Positions 1 through 6,043 are shown, counted from the first letter of the stretch. The stretch is DNA of 64,000 bases from Candidatus Omnitrophota bacterium (GCA_030681595.1 JAUXSB010000008.1:25587-89586); one strand, 5' to 3'. The notes: generated by a model from the letters alone, not told the origin. Program-made: numbers and translations.

Positions 1-69
1 TATTGCGCTTAATGTCTTTTAGAGTTAAAATATCCTTAAGTTGATAATATGTTTTAACAGGGAGGTTGC

Positions 70-1839
70 ATGATAAGTCCTACTCCACAAACACTCGAGA
101 CGCTTTTTACATCTTCTAAGTTATTAAAAGTACCCAAGAATCAAAGACAATTTGCTTGGGGGAAGAATGAGGCGTTAGAATTTATTGAAGATTTAAAAAG
201 TTATGCTGGGACTGGGCAGGGGGATCTTTTTTTAGGCACCATGATTTTTTGTAGTGCAGATGGAAGAGATGACTTTGTTAAGATTGTTGATGGACAGCAA
301 CGAATTACAACAGCATTATTACTCTTAATCGCATGCAGGAATTTGGCAAAAGCAATAAATTCTATCGGAATTGCAAATATTATTCAGCAAAGAATTACTT
401 TTGTAGATTCTACAACGGCCCAGTCTCTGGGAACGCGTCTGATTTCATCCGAATCCATTAAAGATGTTTTTGAATATATGGCTAACTTTGATTGGAATGG
501 AGATTTTCCAAATCGGATAGGTAATAGATCAGTGAAGAGGCAGGTCAATCGCGTCAAATCCATCTTTACTTTCTTTTATGAACAGATACATACATTTGAC
601 CAAGATACGCTAAGCAGATTTTTGAAAGCTATTTATAATGCGTATATAGCTCGGATTGATATTCAAGATGAAGCGGAAGCATTTAGCATTTTCGAGAGGA
701 CAAATGCTAGAGGAATTGATTTGGAGGCATCCGATCTTTTGAAGAATTTTCTTTTCGCGCAAGAAGTTGAAAATTTAGAGGAAGCTTGGCGACAGATAGT
801 TGATAATTCAGAAGGAACAATGTTGCGAATGTTAAAATATTTTTATGTTGCAAAAAAAGGGCCTGTGCTTAGGTCTGAGCTTTATAGAAAGATTAAATCA
901 TATAGCCAAACCATAGGAGCTCCGCAGCTTGTTAATGAGTTGGATAAATTCGCGAAATATTATTCTTTTGTTCAAGCTTCCGTTGAAGTTGAGACGCATG
1001 ACTACTTTGAATTTAATGATTGTGGTTTTATTTCTAATCACGAAGATCAATATGCAGCAATCCATTTAACGCTGGAAGGATTACGCTTGTTTAATATCTC
1101 GCAAATTTATCCACTAATTTATTCTGCTATAGAGAGCTTAAGGAGATTAAATGGGAGCAATAATTCTGGCATGTCTAAAAAGCTAGTTCAGTTGTTTGTT
1201 ACATTAGAAAAATATCATTTTATTAATAATGCAATATGTGATCGAGTTGGTAATGAGATTGAGAAGCTATATGCAGATTTTTGTGTAAATTACTCTGAGT
1301 GTGATGACTTTGTACGAACGACTGATGAATTGATTAATATCTTAAAAGGCCAATTGGCATCCGAACAAGAATTTATGGCTCGTTTTGTTGATATTTCTTA
1401 TTCTGCTGAAACGATACCATTAATTGTGTATATTTTTGATAGAATGGATAATATATGGTTGCATCCAGGAGAGAGAGTGCGTATTTTTAATCCAGATCGT
1501 AAGATTTTGCGTAGAAATCATAACATTGAGCATTTTTATCCTCAGACGCCCCAAGGGGGCGTAGAATTATTAACTGAGATGGTTGATGCTATCGATAATA
1601 TTGGTAATTTGCTGGTTGTGAGTTTTAGGACTAACTCAAAACTTGGGAATGTAACACCAGTTGAAAAAATCAAACTGTTAAAGAGTGATCTTAGAAGAGA
1701 AATTCAAAATCATATTTCCGTTCAGGAGTTTGTAGAAAAATATGAAGGAGTCGCTACCAATTGGGGAGCGGAGCAGATAAATAAGAGAGCAAATGAGCTC
1801 GCTCAATTAGCATATCGTTCTGTATGGAATATGATTTAG
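70..1839 (+). CDS. GmrSD-like type IV restriction / defense protein (N-terminal DUF262 ParB-like NTPase domain, C-terminal DUF1524 His-Me finger nuclease domain)
   Basis: DUF262 hallmark 'DGQQRITT' lies near the N-terminus. The DUF1524 hallmark 'RRNHNIEHFYPQ' lies near the C-terminus. Size 589 aa fits fused GmrSD/BrxU-like proteins. Local sequence looks AT-richer than the housekeeping genes. Confidence 0.65.
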   Translation: MISPTPQTLETLFTSSKLLKVPKNQRQFAWGKNEALEFIEDLKSYAGTGQGDLFLGTMIFCSADGRDDFVKIVDGQQRITTALLLLIACRNLAKAINSIGIANIIQQRITFVDSTTAQSLGTRLISSESIKDVFEYMANFDWNGDFPNRIGNRSVKRQVNRVKSIFTFFYEQIHTFDQDTLSRFLKAIYNAYIARIDIQDEAEAFSIFERTNARGIDLEASDLLKNFLFAQEVENLEEAWRQIVDNSEGTMLRMLKYFYVAKKGPVLRSELYRKIKSYSQTIGAPQLVNELDKFAKYYSFVQASVEVETHDYFEFNDCGFISNHEDQYAAIHLTLEGLRLFNISQIYPLIYSAIESLRRLNGSNNSGMSKKLVQLFVTLEKYHFINNAICDRVGNEIEKLYADFCVNYSECDDFVRTTDELINILKGQLASEQEFMARFVDISYSAETIPLIVYIFDRMDNIWLHPGERVRIFNPDRKILRRNHNIEHFYPQTPQGGVELLTEMVDAIDNIGNLLVVSFRTNSKLGNVTPVEKIKLLKSDLRREIQNHISVQEFVEKYEGVATNWGAEQINKRANELAQLAYRSVWNMI

Positions 1840-1998
1840 TTGATTTTGTTTGTGCCCAAAATGTGCCCATCTAAAGGGAAAACCTTGTAAAATATTGTAA
1901 AGAGTTGTATAACAGGTAGAATCGTTAATTCATTGTCATTTCAGCGAGTTATGCTATAATACTTTGAAAGTAAGAGAGTTAGGGAATTGTTCTTAATG

Positions 1999-2150
1999 GA
2001 CTCCCTCCCTCTCCGCCAATTTAAAAAATATGACTCTATAGTGGGATTCGAAGCCGACCCGAGCGCCACTGGTACAAGCGAGGGCGGCCGGCTTCGGAGG
2101 AGTCTCGACGAATGTCGAGACGGAGGAGAAGGAATCCCTCCCTCTCCGCC
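1999..2150. repeat. GC-rich structured element bounded by 16-17 bp direct repeats (tccctccctctccgcc at 2002-2017 and 2135-2150); candidate ncRNA or miniature inserted element
   Basis: Perfect direct repeats sit about 133 bp apart. The interior is GC-rich, unlike the flanks. It has a perfect hairpin gtctcgac-gaat-gtcgagac at 2102-2121 and a ccg-gctt-cgg hairpin. Confidence 0.4.
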
Positions 2151-2215
2151 AGTTTTAAATTTATATTGTCTGGAACTTTATTCGGTATATAATACTTAAA
2201 AGGAGGTGGTAGAAG

Positions 2216-2323
2216 ATGCTTTATATTAGCCTGATAGGTTTATTCATCTTAGCACTATTGTTTGATATATCATTTAATTTGAGGCGGCTAAATAGAAAAA
2301 TCACGGAATTTGTAAAGAAGTAG
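2216..2323 (+). CDS. small hydrophobic peptide (35 aa, MLYISLIGLFILALLFDISFNLRRLNRKITEFVKK), predicted single TM helix with basic tail
   Basis: Strong SD 'aaaggaggtg' lies 6 nt upstream of the ATG, with a TATAAT-like box at about 2188. The N-terminus is hydrophobic and the C-terminus basic. It is absent from the ORF track because it is under 60 aa. Confidence 0.35.
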   Translation: MLYISLIGLFILALLFDISFNLRRLNRKITEFVKK

Positions 2324-2668
2324 TGAGAATAAAAAAGTAGCCCGCTGTTGTTGCTAAATAAATTTTTGTTTTTTTCATCAAAATAATGTATGCCGCAATC
2401 GTAAGGATACGCGTTTCGGCATTGCGTCATTTTTTATTTTTCAATATTTAACTTAAGCCTATCCGTTAAATATCTCACCTGCAAACTAAAGTATCGTAGT
2501 TAAAAGTTTCGATTATAGACAAAACAAACCCGGCATGGTATTATTTATCAGAGGGTTAATGTTTTATCCTAAGATGTGGCTAAATTTATTATAGGCGATG
2601 TATGGCAAAGCGTGCGTATGGCTGCTTAATTATCAATTTGCTTTCTTCGGAGCAGTAAAGGAAATTTC

Positions 2669-3049
2669 GTGTATCGGGTAGAAATTTTAAATCAGGATGG
2701 TGCTTCGTTTAAAGTGCGCTCCGAAGGCTGCGAATTTATTATCAGTTCTGGCGGCAAGGCGATAACTCCGCCGGCGGCATTATTAGCAAGCCTGGGAAGC
2801 TGTATTGGGGTTTATGCGCGTAAATACTTAGAGGGGGCCGGTATTGCGTCCTCCGGATTTAATATAGCTATTGAGGCGGAATTCTCTAAAGAAAAACCTG
2901 TCTGTTTTGCGGTTATTGATGTAACAGTTGATTTAAAGGGTGTTTTGTTTGACGAACGCAGGAAAGATGCGTTCCTATCTTTTGTAAAAAATTGCCCTGT
3001 GCATAATACCCTGCGGGCTAATCCCGAAATAAAGATTAAAATTATTTAA
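2669..3049 (+). CDS. OsmC/Ohr family peroxiredoxin-like protein
   Basis: GTG start with an upstream AAGGAAA. Contains the two conserved Cys-containing stretches 'LLASLGSCIGVY' and 'CPVHNTL' typical of OsmC. Confidence 0.7.
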   Translation: MYRVEILNQDGASFKVRSEGCEFIISSGGKAITPPAALLASLGSCIGVYARKYLEGAGIASSGFNIAIEAEFSKEKPVCFAVIDVTVDLKGVLFDERRKDAFLSFVKNCPVHNTLRANPEIKIKII

Positions 3050-3071
3050 GATTTTGTTATAAGGAGGCGTT

Positions 3072-4403
3072 ATGGAGCCAGAAATGATTGCTGTGGAAAA
3101 TGAGATATTGGATAAACTTGCCGGAAAAGTTACCCTGATGCAGAACATGGAAGCCAAAAAAGACGCTATGTTTAAGGTATTTTTAGACGTTTACAACAGC
3201 GAAAAAGGCAAAGCACTCTTAAAACAGGTAAAAGGCATAGAGATAGAAAGTTTCTTTAATAGTTTTCTTTCTTATGGTTTAATTGAAGACCTGTTAAATG
3301 ACCAGCAGGTGGAAGATATAATGATTAATTCTTTAGGCCCTATTTTCGTGCATAAGACCAATACGGGCCTGGTTAAGTTAGACAAAAGATTTACTTCTTC
3401 TGAAGAATTAAATTTATTCATCAAGAAGCTTATTATTTTTTCCGGCAAGACCCAAGTCAGGAAGATAAATAACATAGTATTGTATAATATTAAAGGCAGA
3501 GGCAATATAGTATTTTCTCCATTTGGCCCGCAGGTTACTATTACGCGCGCCAAAGAAAAGCCTTTGAGTATTATAGAATTAATCGCAAATCGCACATTAT
3601 CATTTGAGATCGCTGCACAGTTATGGCTTTACGTTGAAGGATTAGGAATTAAGCCGGCAAACCTTATTATCTCGGGAGGGCCGGGTACAGGGAAAACTAC
3701 ATTATTAAATGCCTTGCTCGCCTTTATGCCTAGCGAAGACAGGTTGGTTGTTATTGAGGATACATTAGAGTTAAATACAGAATTAGAAGAAAATTGTTCG
3801 CGTCTTGAGAGCGACGAGGAAGTAACCTTGGCAGATTTGGTAAAGAATAGCCTGAGGATGCGCCCGGATAGAGTTATCGTTGGCGAGGTAAGAGGCGCTG
3901 AGGCGGCCGACCTTATGACCGCGATGAATATCGGTAAATATTGCATGGGCACAATGCATGCTTCTACCGCGCGTGAAACAATAATGAGGCTGGAAAATGA
4001 GCCGATGAATGTTCCGGAAGTATTGGTAAATTTAATCGATGTTTTTGTGATTACGAGGCGTTTTAATATTGACGGCAAAATTGTAAGGGCCATAGGCGAA
4101 GTTGTTGAGACTGCCGGGATGGAAAAGAAGCTGGTTTTGCTTTCTCCGGTTTGGACATTTGATTATAGTAAAAGAAAATTTGTTGAAGCGGGGGTAAGCA
4201 GTGTTTATAGGGATAAGCTTGCGGAAGTAAGCGGTGTTAGCCCGAGAGATATTATTGAGGAAATAAAATTAAGGATCGCGGTTTTAAAGTTTCTGCATGA
4301 GAAAAACATAATGGATAATAAAGACGTAACTTTGTTCTGCCGTAAGTATCACACCAGCCGTAAAGAAGCCTTGGACGGGATAGGTTTTAAATATGGTGAA
4401 TAA
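3072..4403 (+). CDS. type II/IV secretion-system family ATPase (CpaF/TadA/VirB11/FlaI-like), orphan
   Basis: Walker A 'GGPGTGKTT', Asp box 'LVVIEDTLEL', Walker B 'RPDRVIVGEVRG' and His box 'GTMHAS' are all present. No partner membrane-platform genes (TadB/TadC) are adjacent. Confidence 0.8.
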   Translation: MEPEMIAVENEILDKLAGKVTLMQNMEAKKDAMFKVFLDVYNSEKGKALLKQVKGIEIESFFNSFLSYGLIEDLLNDQQVEDIMINSLGPIFVHKTNTGLVKLDKRFTSSEELNLFIKKLIIFSGKTQVRKINNIVLYNIKGRGNIVFSPFGPQVTITRAKEKPLSIIELIANRTLSFEIAAQLWLYVEGLGIKPANLIISGGPGTGKTTLLNALLAFMPSEDRLVVIEDTLELNTELEENCSRLESDEEVTLADLVKNSLRMRPDRVIVGEVRGAEAADLMTAMNIGKYCMGTMHASTARETIMRLENEPMNVPEVLVNLIDVFVITRRFNIDGKIVRAIGEVVETAGMEKKLVLLSPVWTFDYSKRKFVEAGVSSVYRDKLAEVSGVSPRDIIEEIKLRIAVLKFLHEKNIMDNKDVTLFCRKYHTSRKEALDGIGFKYGE

Positions 4404-4449
4404 ATAGTCAAATTGCCCGGATTATTACGGAGAGCATCATCAAGCTGAT

Positions 4450-4893
4450 CTAGAATTTTATGCTGAAGACATATATGATGTTAGCGTTAGATTTATTGTC
4501 GTCGAATTTCATGCGGCCCTTCATGTTAAAAAGCCTTACCTTAAATTTTTCACTTACCCAGTCTTCTATTTCTTTAGCCTTAAAGTAGGGGTAGAACACA
4601 TCAACTCCTGTTAATTCTTCCCATTTTTCCCTGAGTTTTTTCTTATCTTCTTTGTCTTCTACGGGATCGGCATAAGCCTTTTTATTGATAAAATCAAAAA
4701 AAGAACAGGTTTCGTTCTTTCTGTTGTCAGGCACAGGGGTAGATAAGTTTTTGCCATCGTTTGTAGATTCTTGAGAAGGCGCTAACGCACTTTTCTTATT
4801 ACCGGAATTATCATTTTCGGCGCAACCAAGAGAGGCAACTAACGTTATGGCGCAACCTAATATAATCATGGTTGTTATAGTAAATATACGCAT
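4450..4893 (-). CDS. hypothetical lipoprotein
   Basis: N-terminus MRIFTITTMIILGCAITLVASLGC carries a signal peptide plus a lipobox-like SLGC. The rest is a charged soluble domain. Confidence 0.45.
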   Translation of the reverse strand: MRIFTITTMIILGCAITLVASLGCAENDNSGNKKSALAPSQESTNDGKNLSTPVPDNRKNETCSFFDFINKKAYADPVEDKEDKKKLREKWEELTGVDVFYPYFKAKEIEDWVSEKFKVRLFNMKGRMKFDDNKSNANIIYVFSIKF

Positions 4894-5024
4894 TCTTTAC
4901 CTCCACGCTTGCCCCCCAAAGCTTATGCCTCTCCTACTTTAAGTATAGCATTTTTTGCTTAATTTTGCCAAAAAATGGGTAAATTTGTTTCACGTAACTC
5001 TTTGTTAGTTAATAAGTTATAAAA

Positions 5025-5043
5025 TGTTAACAATTTGTTAACA
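5025..5043. promoter_or_regulatory. perfect palindrome tgttaacaa-t-ttgttaaca in divergent intergenic region (candidate operator)
   Basis: A 9-bp inverted repeat with a 1-bp spacer sits in the AT-rich region between the minus-strand lipoprotein gene and the tRNA-Arg/tadA unit. Confidence 0.3.
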
Positions 5044-5262
5044 AAAAATGTTGATTAAAATATTAAAAATACTTACTATTTAAAATTGCGAACCGCATGA
5101 TTGATATAAAAATAGAAGGGTTTATATTGTTTTTTCTTAAATAATCGGGTTCTTTATTTTTAAATCCGGCTTAATTTACTGAAATGGACACGCGTAAAAG
5201 TTTTTATTCAATAATCTTCTTGAATAAAACTACTGTTTAGGTATAATATAGTTTTAAACTTT

Positions 5263-5336
5263 GCGCCCATAGCTCAACTGGATAGAGCATCAGCCTACGA
5301 AGCTGGTTGTTGCAGGTTCGATTCCTGCTGGGCGCG
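5263..5336 (+). tRNA. tRNA-Arg (anticodon ACG)
   Basis: Cloverleaf read by eye: acceptor GCGCCCA/TGGGCGC, D-arm agctcaactggatagagc, anticodon loop CTACGAA, T-arm GGTTCGATTCC. CCA is not encoded. Confidence 0.8.
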
Positions 5337-5425
5337 CAATAATTCAGAACTAAGAATTAAGAGCTAAGAGTTAAGAAAAAACCAAAAGAGAAAACGAAAA
5401 TTTGGGAAAAATTGACGAGATTTAT

Positions 5426-5857
5426 ATGTCTGAAGCCATAAAGGAAGCAATAAAGGCTTCAGAGGAAGATGAGGTTCCTGTCGGGTGTGTGATTGTACGC
5501 GATGGCAAAATTATCGCCCGTGCGCATAATCAGGTAGAGCGCCTAAAAGATCCCACCGCGCATGCCGAAATGATTGCCATAACTTCTGCGGCAAATTTTT
5601 TAGGCAGTAAATGGTTGAGTGAAGCCTCGCTCTATGTTACAATTGAACCTTGCAGTATGTGCGCAGGGGCTTTGGTGCTTTCTCGTATAAAAGAGGTTGT
5701 TTATGGAGCGCCCGACCCGAAAGCCGGCGCCTGTGGTTCGATAATAAATATTGCCAACGATAAAAAATTAAATCATCGCATAAAAGTTAAAAGTGGAATT
5801 TTAGAAGATAAATGTGGTTCTTTGTTAAGTGAGTTTTTTAAGAAAAAAAGAAAATAA
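5426..5857 (+). CDS. tadA: tRNA-specific adenosine deaminase TadA
   Basis: Zinc-binding motifs 'HAEMIAI' and 'PCSMCAGAL' of the CDA fold are present. Start taken at the internal ATG (MSEAIKEAIKA); the track ORF begins at an upstream TTG at 5402. Confidence 0.85.
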   Translation: MSEAIKEAIKASEEDEVPVGCVIVRDGKIIARAHNQVERLKDPTAHAEMIAITSAANFLGSKWLSEASLYVTIEPCSMCAGALVLSRIKEVVYGAPDPKAGACGSIINIANDKKLNHRIKVKSGILEDKCGSLLSEFFKKKRK

Positions 5858-5874: not shown

Positions 5875-5966
5875 GGAGAGATGGCTGAGTGGCCGAAAGC
5901 AGCTTCCTGCTAAGAAGTTGACCTGGGAAACTGGGTCCCTGGGTTCGAATCCCAGTCTCTCCGCCA
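5875..5966 (+). tRNA. tRNA-Ser (anticodon GCT), type II with long variable arm, CCA encoded
   Basis: Acceptor GGAGAGA/TCTCTCC, anticodon loop CTGCTAA, long variable arm tgacctgggaaactgggtccc, T-arm GGTTCGAATCC. Confidence 0.8.
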
Positions 5967-6043
5967 TTGCAACCAATTCGAACCTTTTTGCTTTTTGGTT
6001 AACTCTTGCTGCTGGTAAACAGAAATATATTAAGAAGGAGGAT

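Follow-up and report, generated by a model that had tools for sequence, protein, structure and literature searches.

Does a GmrSD-like restriction gene that stands close to an ATPase gene of the secretion superfamily belong with it to one defense island, or have two separate pieces of DNA met at this place? The question arises at the left end of a 64,000-nt stretch of DNA from Candidatus Omnitrophota bacterium (GCA_030681595.1 JAUXSB010000008.1:25587-89586; from here: the window). Omnitrophota are an uncultivated phylum of very small cells. The original prediction had taken positions 1–5260 as a single AT-richer, accessory-like segment that is bordered by a tRNA-Arg gene and carries a GmrSD-like gene, a repeat-flanked structured element, a toxin-like 35-aa peptide, OsmC, an orphan ATPase and a lipoprotein. 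Listing of the open reading frames together with Pfam, NCBIfam, ARAGORN and Rfam searches recovered all of these features at about the predicted places. They are real, but they form a composite of two different things. Positions 1–5260 very probably comprise the end of a horizontally acquired island (island A) followed by conserved Omnitrophota chromosome.

Junction of island A with the conserved chromosome

Within the window, the right-hand end of island A covers positions 1–1997 (plus strand, as for all features below unless stated otherwise). Over 5,963 nt, the Logan contig L001 has the same sequence as the window, and it adds 8,038 nt upstream at a GC content of 0.340, in line with the earlier expectation that the window starts inside an accessory block. 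The island, which continues upstream for at least these 8,038 nt, was read from its right end only, i.e. from window positions 1–1997 and the sequence added by L001. It is at least 10 kb long, with only its last 2 kb inside the window.

The evidence for the junction comes from locus L337, which lies on a 519-kb ENA contig and encodes P0351, a second member of the 90%-identity cluster of the ATPase. Across the core, its DNA shares ~87% identity with the window. The order in L337 is a 140-aa gene, an intact tRNA-Ser(GGA) gene (L337 9021–9108), a GC-rich element (element B, treated below) together with another copy of the tRNA 3′ end, the 35-aa gene and OsmC, followed by the ATPase, a 148-aa gene on the minus strand, tRNA-Arg(ACG), TadA, a LAGLIDADG-like insert, tRNA-Ser(GCT), DnaX and RecR. 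GmrSD is absent from this locus. The alignment of the two sequences begins at window position 1999, corresponding to L337 9089, within the T-loop/T-stem of the intact tRNA-Ser(GGA); at the junction L337 reads ...GAGGGTTCGAATCCCTCCCTCTCCGCCAATTTAAAAAG and the window ...TTCTTAATGGACTCCCTCCCTCTCCGCCAATTTAAAAAA. Nothing to the left of window position 1999 aligns to L337, which lacks all window DNA left of ~2000 plus the preceding 8 kb. L337 is the empty site for island A, with an intact tRNA-Ser(GGA) gene at the exact insertion point. With novel DNA that starts inside the T-loop/T-stem and a displaced 3′ end that has been retained, the junction has the typical look of an element inserted in the 3′ part of a tRNA gene.

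The retained 3′ end, from the T-loop/T-stem to CCA, was identified by alignment to L337 as repeat copy 1 at 1998–2018 and represents attR of island A. A second tRNA-Ser(GGA) 3′ end (repeat copy 2, 2131–2151) forms a direct repeat with it, closes element B and is also present in L337. The two copies share the exact 17-mer TCCCTCCCTCTCCGCCA at 2002–2018 and 2135–2151. With up to 3 mismatches allowed, this 17-mer has 3 matches in the window as against 0.13 expected, the third being the genuine 3′ end of tRNA-Ser(GCT). The boundary of the island is the repeat at 1998–2018, with its empty site in L337, and not the tRNA-Arg gene that had been proposed for this role.

Repeat searches gave matches in more than 120 metagenome contigs for a 25-mer that takes in the T-loop and in more than 120 IMG/VR contigs for the 17-mer. 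Wherever the 17-mer lay inside a tRNA, it was the 3′ end of a tRNA-Ser (107/107 metagenomic and 73/73 viral-contig tRNAs). It lay outside any tRNA in 40 of its 121 viral-contig occurrences, as expected of att fragments. On one contig (L103), a 9.6-kb element that encodes a capsid protein, a prohead protease and a tyrosine integrase lies between a tRNA-Ser(CGA) and the 17-mer repeat, and large serine recombinases abut tRNA-Ser 3′ ends in L139 (375–2567) and in the Omnitrophota relative L086 (10595–11497). tRNA-Ser genes hence appear to be targeted by elements of both the tyrosine- and the serine-recombinase type.

The base composition separates the two parts as well. As predicted, the segment is AT-rich: with a GC content of 0.366 it is the lowest-GC 5260-bp stretch of the window (rank 1/235; mean 0.414, sd 0.015). 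At the level of single genes, the prediction held for GmrSD but not for OsmC, the ATPase and the 147-aa gene. GC content at third codon positions (GC3) was compared with that of the 63 genes downstream of position 5400 (0.409 ± 0.036). It is 0.285 in GmrSD (z -3.5) and 0.22–0.33 in six of the seven upstream island genes (z -2.3 to -5.4), the seventh, a 110-aa RepA_N-like gene, being normal (0.441, z +0.9). OsmC (0.378, z -0.9), the ATPase (0.414, z +0.2) and the 147-aa gene (0.399, z -0.3) are normal too, and the rest of the low GC content of 1–5260 stems from AT-rich intergenic DNA. This split in two at gene level places the compositional break between 1839 and 2669, not at tRNA-Arg.

Together, these data suggest the following course of events. 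Island A would sit inserted in the tRNA-Ser(GGA) gene with attR at 1998–2018, where the original 3′ end (T-loop to CCA) would survive as a fragment, while an intact tRNA-Ser(GGA) gene, re-completed by island DNA, would be expected at the far upstream end of the island. Insertion most likely proceeded via a site-specific recombinase with crossover in the T-loop/T-stem. Element B (2019–2151) would lie between attR and the chromosome and would be older than island A. From 2152 onward, the DNA would be vertically inherited core, with the 35-aa peptide, OsmC, the FlaI/CpaF-like ATPase, the 147-aa exported protein, tRNA-Arg(ACG), TadA, tRNA-Ser(GCT) and DnaX, and the proximity of GmrSD to the ATPase would be an accident of the insertion site.

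Defense cargo of the island and genes of the flank

The last gene of the island, at 70–1839, encodes a GmrSD-like type IV restriction nuclease of 589 aa (MDP1852917.1) of the HEC-06 subtype, as assigned by Pfam and PADLOC. Pfam detects GmrSD_N (1.7e-31, residues 9–229) and GmrSD_C (5.6e-11), and PADLOC matches three HEC-06 models over almost the whole profile (5.5e-61, 2.6e-58 and 7.1e-56), whereas PADLOC SspE matches only the N-terminal 90 residues. In the N-terminal DUF262/GmrSD_N domain, the DGQQR motif (D74–R78) is invariant in 24 homologues; in the C-terminal DUF1524/GmrSD_C domain, E487 and H488 of the NIEHFYP motif are invariant in the same number and P491 is conserved in at least 90%. 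Both the DGQQR and the EH..P motif align with the same motifs in DUF262 proteins of the PDB. HEC-06 has been experimentally validated as a stand-alone GmrSD-like defense that requires Q79/R80 of DGQQR as well as E471/H472 of EHICP (bioRxiv 10.1101/2024.01.29.577857). Judging from the family (PMC4619093, PMC4437046, PMC8565348), the protein would be a type IV restriction enzyme that depends on NTP: the DUF262 domain with its DGQQR motif would hydrolyse the nucleotide, and the DUF1524 His-Me/HNH domain with its EHxxP motif would cut modified invading DNA.

The best non-self homologue of the nuclease is 59% identical, and the named homologues are scattered over Patescibacteria, Elusimicrobia, Margulisiibacteriota, Verrucomicrobia, Acidobacteria and Bathyarchaeia. 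Their neighborhoods, seen in three contexts from five loci (L329/L330, L331, L332/L333), are all different, and none has a T2SSE ATPase beside the GmrSD homologue. By its genomic contexts the gene appears to be a stand-alone one with no conserved partner. The full-length HEC-06 match, the deviating GC3 and the scattered homologues support its predicted status as an accessory, presumably horizontally acquired defense gene. It is a fresh representative of the known HEC-06 family from an uncultivated Omnitrophota host.

More defense content had been expected upstream of the window, and this was found. L001 codes for the final 287 aa (U1) of a type III restriction Res/helicase protein. Its relative P0241 in locus L334, 86% identical, belongs to a Mod-Res operon within a cluster of a Gp49/HTH toxin-antitoxin, RadC, an N6_N4 methyltransferase and ResIII, and this restriction-modification (R-M) cluster begins ~570 nt past a tRNA-Ser(GGA) gene. 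Three consecutive genes for proteins of 473, 331 and 327 aa (L001 1085–4872, i.e. 7 to 3 kb upstream of the window) sit between the type III Res gene and a small replication/regulation module. The three proteins gave no significant Pfam, PADLOC or PHROGs match. In family scans of U2–U5, PADLOC and PHROGs found nothing and Pfam only sub-threshold matches; viral contigs yielded nothing useful for U2, U5 and U7, and plasmids held no match to U2 or U3 and one weak match to U4, a haloarchaeal hypothetical protein. The three genes are candidate cargo and could constitute an undescribed defense system. The replication/regulation module comprises a SpoVG-like protein, a 110-aa protein with weak similarity to RepA_N/DnaD-like winged-helix proteins and an HTH_17 excisionase-like protein, the gene of which directly precedes GmrSD. 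Weak MADS matches (the HTH_17 protein to MAD1 and the ATPase to mad8) were treated as generic domain matches.

On the other side of the junction, the OsmC-family gene (2669–3049; Pfam OsmC 3.5e-15) is a core gene that lies directly upstream of the ATPase in L083/84/85, in L336 (ATPase 75% identical), in L335 (85%) and in L337. The ATPase (3072–4403; 443 aa, MDP1852919.1; Pfam T2SSE, PF00437, 3.5e-34) is a FlaI/CpaF-like member of the secretion superfamily and an Omnitrophota core gene. Its best NCBIfam match is FlaI (1.1e-63, full length, below the cut-off of that model); the protein stays below every NCBIfam equivalog cut-off, and its PDB relatives are afGspE, CpaF and FlaI. In a 23-sequence alignment with a mean column identity of 78%, G202, G203, P204, G207, K208 and T210 of the Walker A region (GPGTGKT) are invariant and G205 is conserved in at least 90%. 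Among the 120 cluster representatives listed, the non-self matches are 63–85% identical, and the named ones are all Omnitrophota but one. A GTDB scan for ATPase loci, made with two exact peptide patterns so that its ranking may be biased, covered 17 Omnitrophota genomes. Literature searches brought up nothing about a FlaI-like ATPase of Omnitrophota.

At least 12 Omnitrophota loci show the order ATPase, tRNA-Arg(ACG), TadA, tRNA-Ser(GCT). ATPase, tRNA-Arg(ACG) and TadA recur in L003, L007–L011, L013, L017 and L018, often followed by tRNA-Ser(GCT) and DnaX, and the order including tRNA-Arg is found also in L083–85, L336 and L337. A tRNA-Ser(GGA) gene lies 1.7–3.9 kb upstream of the ATPase in L008, L010, L013 and L018. 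Hence the same gene order recurs in relatives as core for 2152–5260 and does not for 1–2000. OsmC, the ATPase, the 147-aa gene and tRNA-Arg, all counted to the island before, are syntenic in L335, L337, L083, L336 and more distant Omnitrophota and have a normal composition. No GmrSD gene occurs in the more than 20 ATPase loci examined, which speaks against a conserved GmrSD-ATPase neighborhood; the pairing is coincidental.

How probable, then, are other accounts of the whole segment? The supposition that 1–5260 is one accessory island bounded by tRNA-Arg, with GmrSD and the 'orphan' ATPase perhaps forming a two-gene defense system, draws on the low GC content of the stretch, on the tRNA at 5263 and on an ATPase without a platform or pilin partner gene nearby. 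It is contradicted by the empty site in L337 and by OsmC, the ATPase, the 147-aa gene and tRNA-Arg standing in the same order in island-free relatives, with normal GC3 for the three protein genes. Moreover, the non-self matches of the ATPase among the 120 clusters listed are nearly all Omnitrophota at 63–85% identity, as opposed to at best 59% in scattered phyla for GmrSD, next to whose homologues a T2SSE ATPase was not seen. We regard one island with such a system as very improbable. Site-specific integration, for its part, was inferred from the right junction alone, and some observations weigh against it. Neither an integrase nor another recombinase was found in the ~10 kb of readable island A. 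In L334, the type III R-M cluster lies beside tRNA-Ser(GGA), yet there is no integrase in the 5 kb between, and the 3′ end of that tRNA (CCCTGCCTCTCCG) has no CCA and differs from the repeat in the window. Island A may be an immobile, decayed element.

The missing integrases, in island A and in L334, would also suit a variable defense hot spot at tRNA-Ser(GGA), in which the GmrSD block was exchanged by homologous recombination of the flanks and the tRNA-Ser fragments are old, unrelated scars; that the DNA upstream of OsmC differs in every relative fits as well. This is unlikely in view of the novel DNA that starts exactly inside the T-loop/T-stem with the displaced 3′ end retained, which is a signature of site-specific integration. 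In addition, genuine integrase-bearing elements elsewhere have the 17-mer of the repeat at their border, and island A holds an excisionase-like HTH_17 gene and a Rep-like gene. Integration of island A into tRNA-Ser(GGA) is the reading that we prefer. What looked like a plausible new system of GmrSD and an orphan ATPase is then a chance adjacency made by the insertion of the island, and the actual border of the island is a degenerate piece of a tRNA, one that escapes tRNA finders. The finding as such is ordinary, a known kind of defense gene on a tRNA-integrated island. The locus nevertheless offers a clean example of defense-gene traffic in Omnitrophota, with type III R-M, an HEC-06-type GmrSD and unknown genes, and the defense cargo has homologues scattered over Patescibacteria and DPANN archaea.

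The remaining genes of the segment belong to the flank. The gene for a small hydrophobic/basic peptide of 35 aa (2216–2323) is conserved in the island-free L337 and is part of the core flank, not of the island. It is preceded by a promoter-like site (2166–2193) and an AGGAGG ribosome-binding site. Compared with L337 it shows 13 nt differences and only 4 amino-acid changes, all conservative; with changes so few and so mild, the open reading frame is a real gene under purifying selection. The label 'toxin-like' appears to derive only from the hydrophobic N-terminus and the basic C-terminus. A search for features of a type I toxin found no antisense promoter, and the sole Rfam match, RatA, was non-significant (E = 2.1). 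The 147-aa protein with a signal peptide (4450–4893, minus strand) is an exported protein that occurs only in the closest relatives, with a 53% identical homologue at the same position in L335 and one of 148 aa in L337. Conservation is seen in its C-terminal 90 residues, and it has no Pfam or NCBIfam match. The signal-peptide protein is present as predicted; that it is a lipoprotein is doubtful, since the Cys of its LGC lipobox has no counterpart in the closest relative, which reads VYCVHA there.

It is followed by tRNA-Arg(ACG) (5263–5337; ARAGORN, Rfam), TadA, the tRNA adenosine(34) deaminase (5402–5857; NCBIfam 2.8e-50, above cut-off), and tRNA-Ser(GCT) (5875–5966; ARAGORN), with DnaX next. 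The name 'TadA' in the original prediction refers to the ATPase family of the Tad pilus, to which the neighboring tadA, a tRNA deaminase gene, is unrelated. tRNA-Arg(ACG) is the established substrate of bacterial TadA, and the enzyme-substrate gene pair, with tRNA-Arg(ACG) directly before tadA, is conserved, usually with tRNA-Ser(GCT) next, and was observed in the window and in L003, L008, L011, L013, L083, L336 and L337. The spacer between the ATPase and tRNA-Arg varies from 27–30 nt in L083, L003 and L011 to 860 nt in the window (4404–5262, where the 147-aa gene lies) and 3.7 kb in L007/L009, and ~8 kb of other genes intervene in L086. The LAGLIDADG-like gene of L337 (12866–13642, a weak Pfam match), between tadA and tRNA-Ser(GCT), is absent from the window. 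L083, from a CG11 Omnitrophica relative, has a Vsr-like endonuclease gene and an IS3-type transposase pair (66–2099) 8–10 kb upstream of OsmC, another sign that the DNA upstream of the OsmC-ATPase block is variable. Outside Omnitrophota, the best matches of the ATPase in the GTDB scan (L019–L033) were proteins of Micrarchaeota/DPANN archaea at 32–42% identity, many nearly full length; bacterial CpaF-like proteins came next, at 31–36% identity over the ATPase domain only, in this pattern-based ranking. Across the window, the GC skew is positive in 62 of 64 1-kb bins and its cumulative curve rises almost monotonically, which would fit the leading strand of one replichore. A promoter-like site at 1933–1960 (TTGTCA-16-TATAAT, TG-extended; 11/12 consensus matches, a consensus match only) points into the repeat region.

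Element B between the tRNA-Ser repeats

Element B is the only part of the flagged region that is worth further work. It consists of an AT-rich spacer (2019–2042) and a GC-rich structured core that extends from 2043 to 2130 or 2134 (element B as a whole: 2019–2130), and is also present in L337. Together with repeat copy 2 the unit spans 2019–2151, i.e. 133 bp, and contains no open reading frame. The core of 92 nt has a GC content of ~63% and opens with GGGATTCGAA, the reverse complement of the T-loop/T-stem sequence TTCGAATCCC; it folds as two hairpins with fold z-scores of -2.5 to -2.8. ARAGORN found no tRNA or tmRNA in the region, even at 70% thresholds, and Rfam nothing significant at E ≤ 10. 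Among three sequences, covariation amounted to one compensatory pair in the second hairpin and one broken pair, too few for a claim of RNA structure.

Since L337 has element B directly behind the intact tRNA gene, element B pre-dates island A. Window and L337 differ in 2 of the 92 core positions (97.8% identity), as compared with 75–92% for the neighboring DNA (P ≤ 3e-4), and the core is more conserved than any neighboring gene. L337 also holds a second copy of element B, with 5 differences, behind tRNA-Ser(GCT). Both repeats that flank this copy are of the GCT type (GAATCCCAGTCTCTCCGATAAT), so the duplication is either target-derived or homogenised; gene conversion may account for the GCT-type repeats. 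The Logan contigs of the L337 organism end within element B, as expected of a repeat.

Look-alike units of ~110–190 bp occur directly after intact tRNA-Ser genes in L237 (2357–2520), L241 (1061–1220), L255 (1326–1506), L284 (527–734) and L308 (7247–7630), on contigs from unrelated metagenomes with GC contents of 34–65%. Their layout is a tRNA-Ser, a spacer, an inverted T-arm motif, a structured core and a duplicated 3′ end from the T-loop onward. The end duplicates often include up to 35 nt of the downstream flank, and L308 has two units in tandem. With a covariance model run over 100 loci, no relatedness of the element B core to the look-alikes was detected (best E = 0.55, at unrelated positions). 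A 22-nt pattern of the core had no exact match in viral contigs, and the core had no match among plasmids. The core in L284 resembles the Rfam family Clostridiales-2 below threshold (33.5 bits vs 58.6 gathering), which element B of the window does not; a literature search found nothing on Clostridiales-2. The apparent short duplications in L219, L223, L227 and L317 were discarded as merely tandem tRNA-Ser genes. In the window itself, the sequence right after tRNA-Ser(GCT) (5967–6000, TTGCAACCAATTCGAACC) contains ATTCGAAC, an inverted T-loop motif as in element B and the look-alikes; no second copy of the tRNA end follows, and the motif could be due to chance, a terminator stem or a footprint.

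The simplest reading is that element B represents a decayed integrative element (cis-mobilizable element, CIME) that keeps attL and attR as a functionless scar, and that island A was joined to it later by tandem accretion. We consider this a serious possibility that falls just short of probable. The position of element B between two copies of the tRNA 3′ end fits the accretion scheme for CIMEs and for integrative and mobilizable elements (PMC5704250, a review that cites Pavlovic 2004 and Bellanger 2011), and the short look-alike units after intact tRNA-Ser genes in unrelated metagenomes are in its favor as well. A neutral scar should decay, however, and the core is conserved far above its neighbors; nor would a simple integrase exchange with an element-borne repeat predict that the second L337 copy has the repeats of its own target tRNA. 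The strong conservation and the target-type repeats leave room for a functional tRNA-trailer RNA or an active miniature element. More tentatively, element B may be an undescribed miniature element, a mobile unit and/or a structured RNA, specific for tRNA-Ser 3′ ends, which we hold possible but rather doubtful. Consistent with this idea, element B always starts after the tRNA and ends in a duplicate of the last 20–30 nt of its target tRNA, and the two L337 copies behind different tRNA-Ser genes resemble the outcome of a long target-site duplication. If element B is indeed mobile or functional, it would constitute a new kind of tRNA-targeting miniature element and a simple marker for integration hot spots.

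Comparison with known systems

The nuclease resembles the HEC-06/GmrSD-like enzymes (GmrSD, BrxU and SspE relatives) in that one polypeptide chain combines DUF262 (DGQQR) at the N-terminus with an HNH-like DUF1524 domain (EHxxP) at the C-terminus, in its full-length match to the PADLOC HEC-06 profiles and as a stand-alone gene in a defense island. What sets it apart is its divergence, with no other sequence found exceeding 59% identity. Solved structures are only distant: the family profile matches the DUF262 protein 9JFL at 2.7e-14, whereas the single sequence matches nothing. The ATPase shares the T2SSE domain, the Walker A motif GPGTGKT and full-length FlaI similarity with the ATPases FlaI of the archaellum, CpaF of the Tad pilus and GspE2. 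Unlike in these systems, no FlaJ/TadB/TadC platform gene (T2SSF-type Pfam) was found within ±10 kb of the window-type ATPase in L083 or L337, and the gene is fixed beside tRNA-Arg(ACG)-tadA in many Omnitrophota.

Island A is like known tRNA-integrated defense islands in that AT-richer foreign DNA begins in a tRNA gene, the displaced 3′ end survives as a direct repeat, the empty site is seen in a relative that lacks the island and the cargo consists of defense genes; here, in contrast, the junction is known from the right end, and the DNA that was read ends 8 kb upstream of the window. With CIMEs and tandem accretion, element B has in common a small, gene-less unit between att-like repeats that shares a tRNA, in tandem, with a larger element. 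It differs from CIMEs by a length of only about 110 bp, by a core that is more conserved than the flanking genes, by the 7–10-bp inverted repeats mimicking the T-arm that bound it and by being flanked, at the second tRNA-Ser, on both sides by the 3′ end of that very tRNA.

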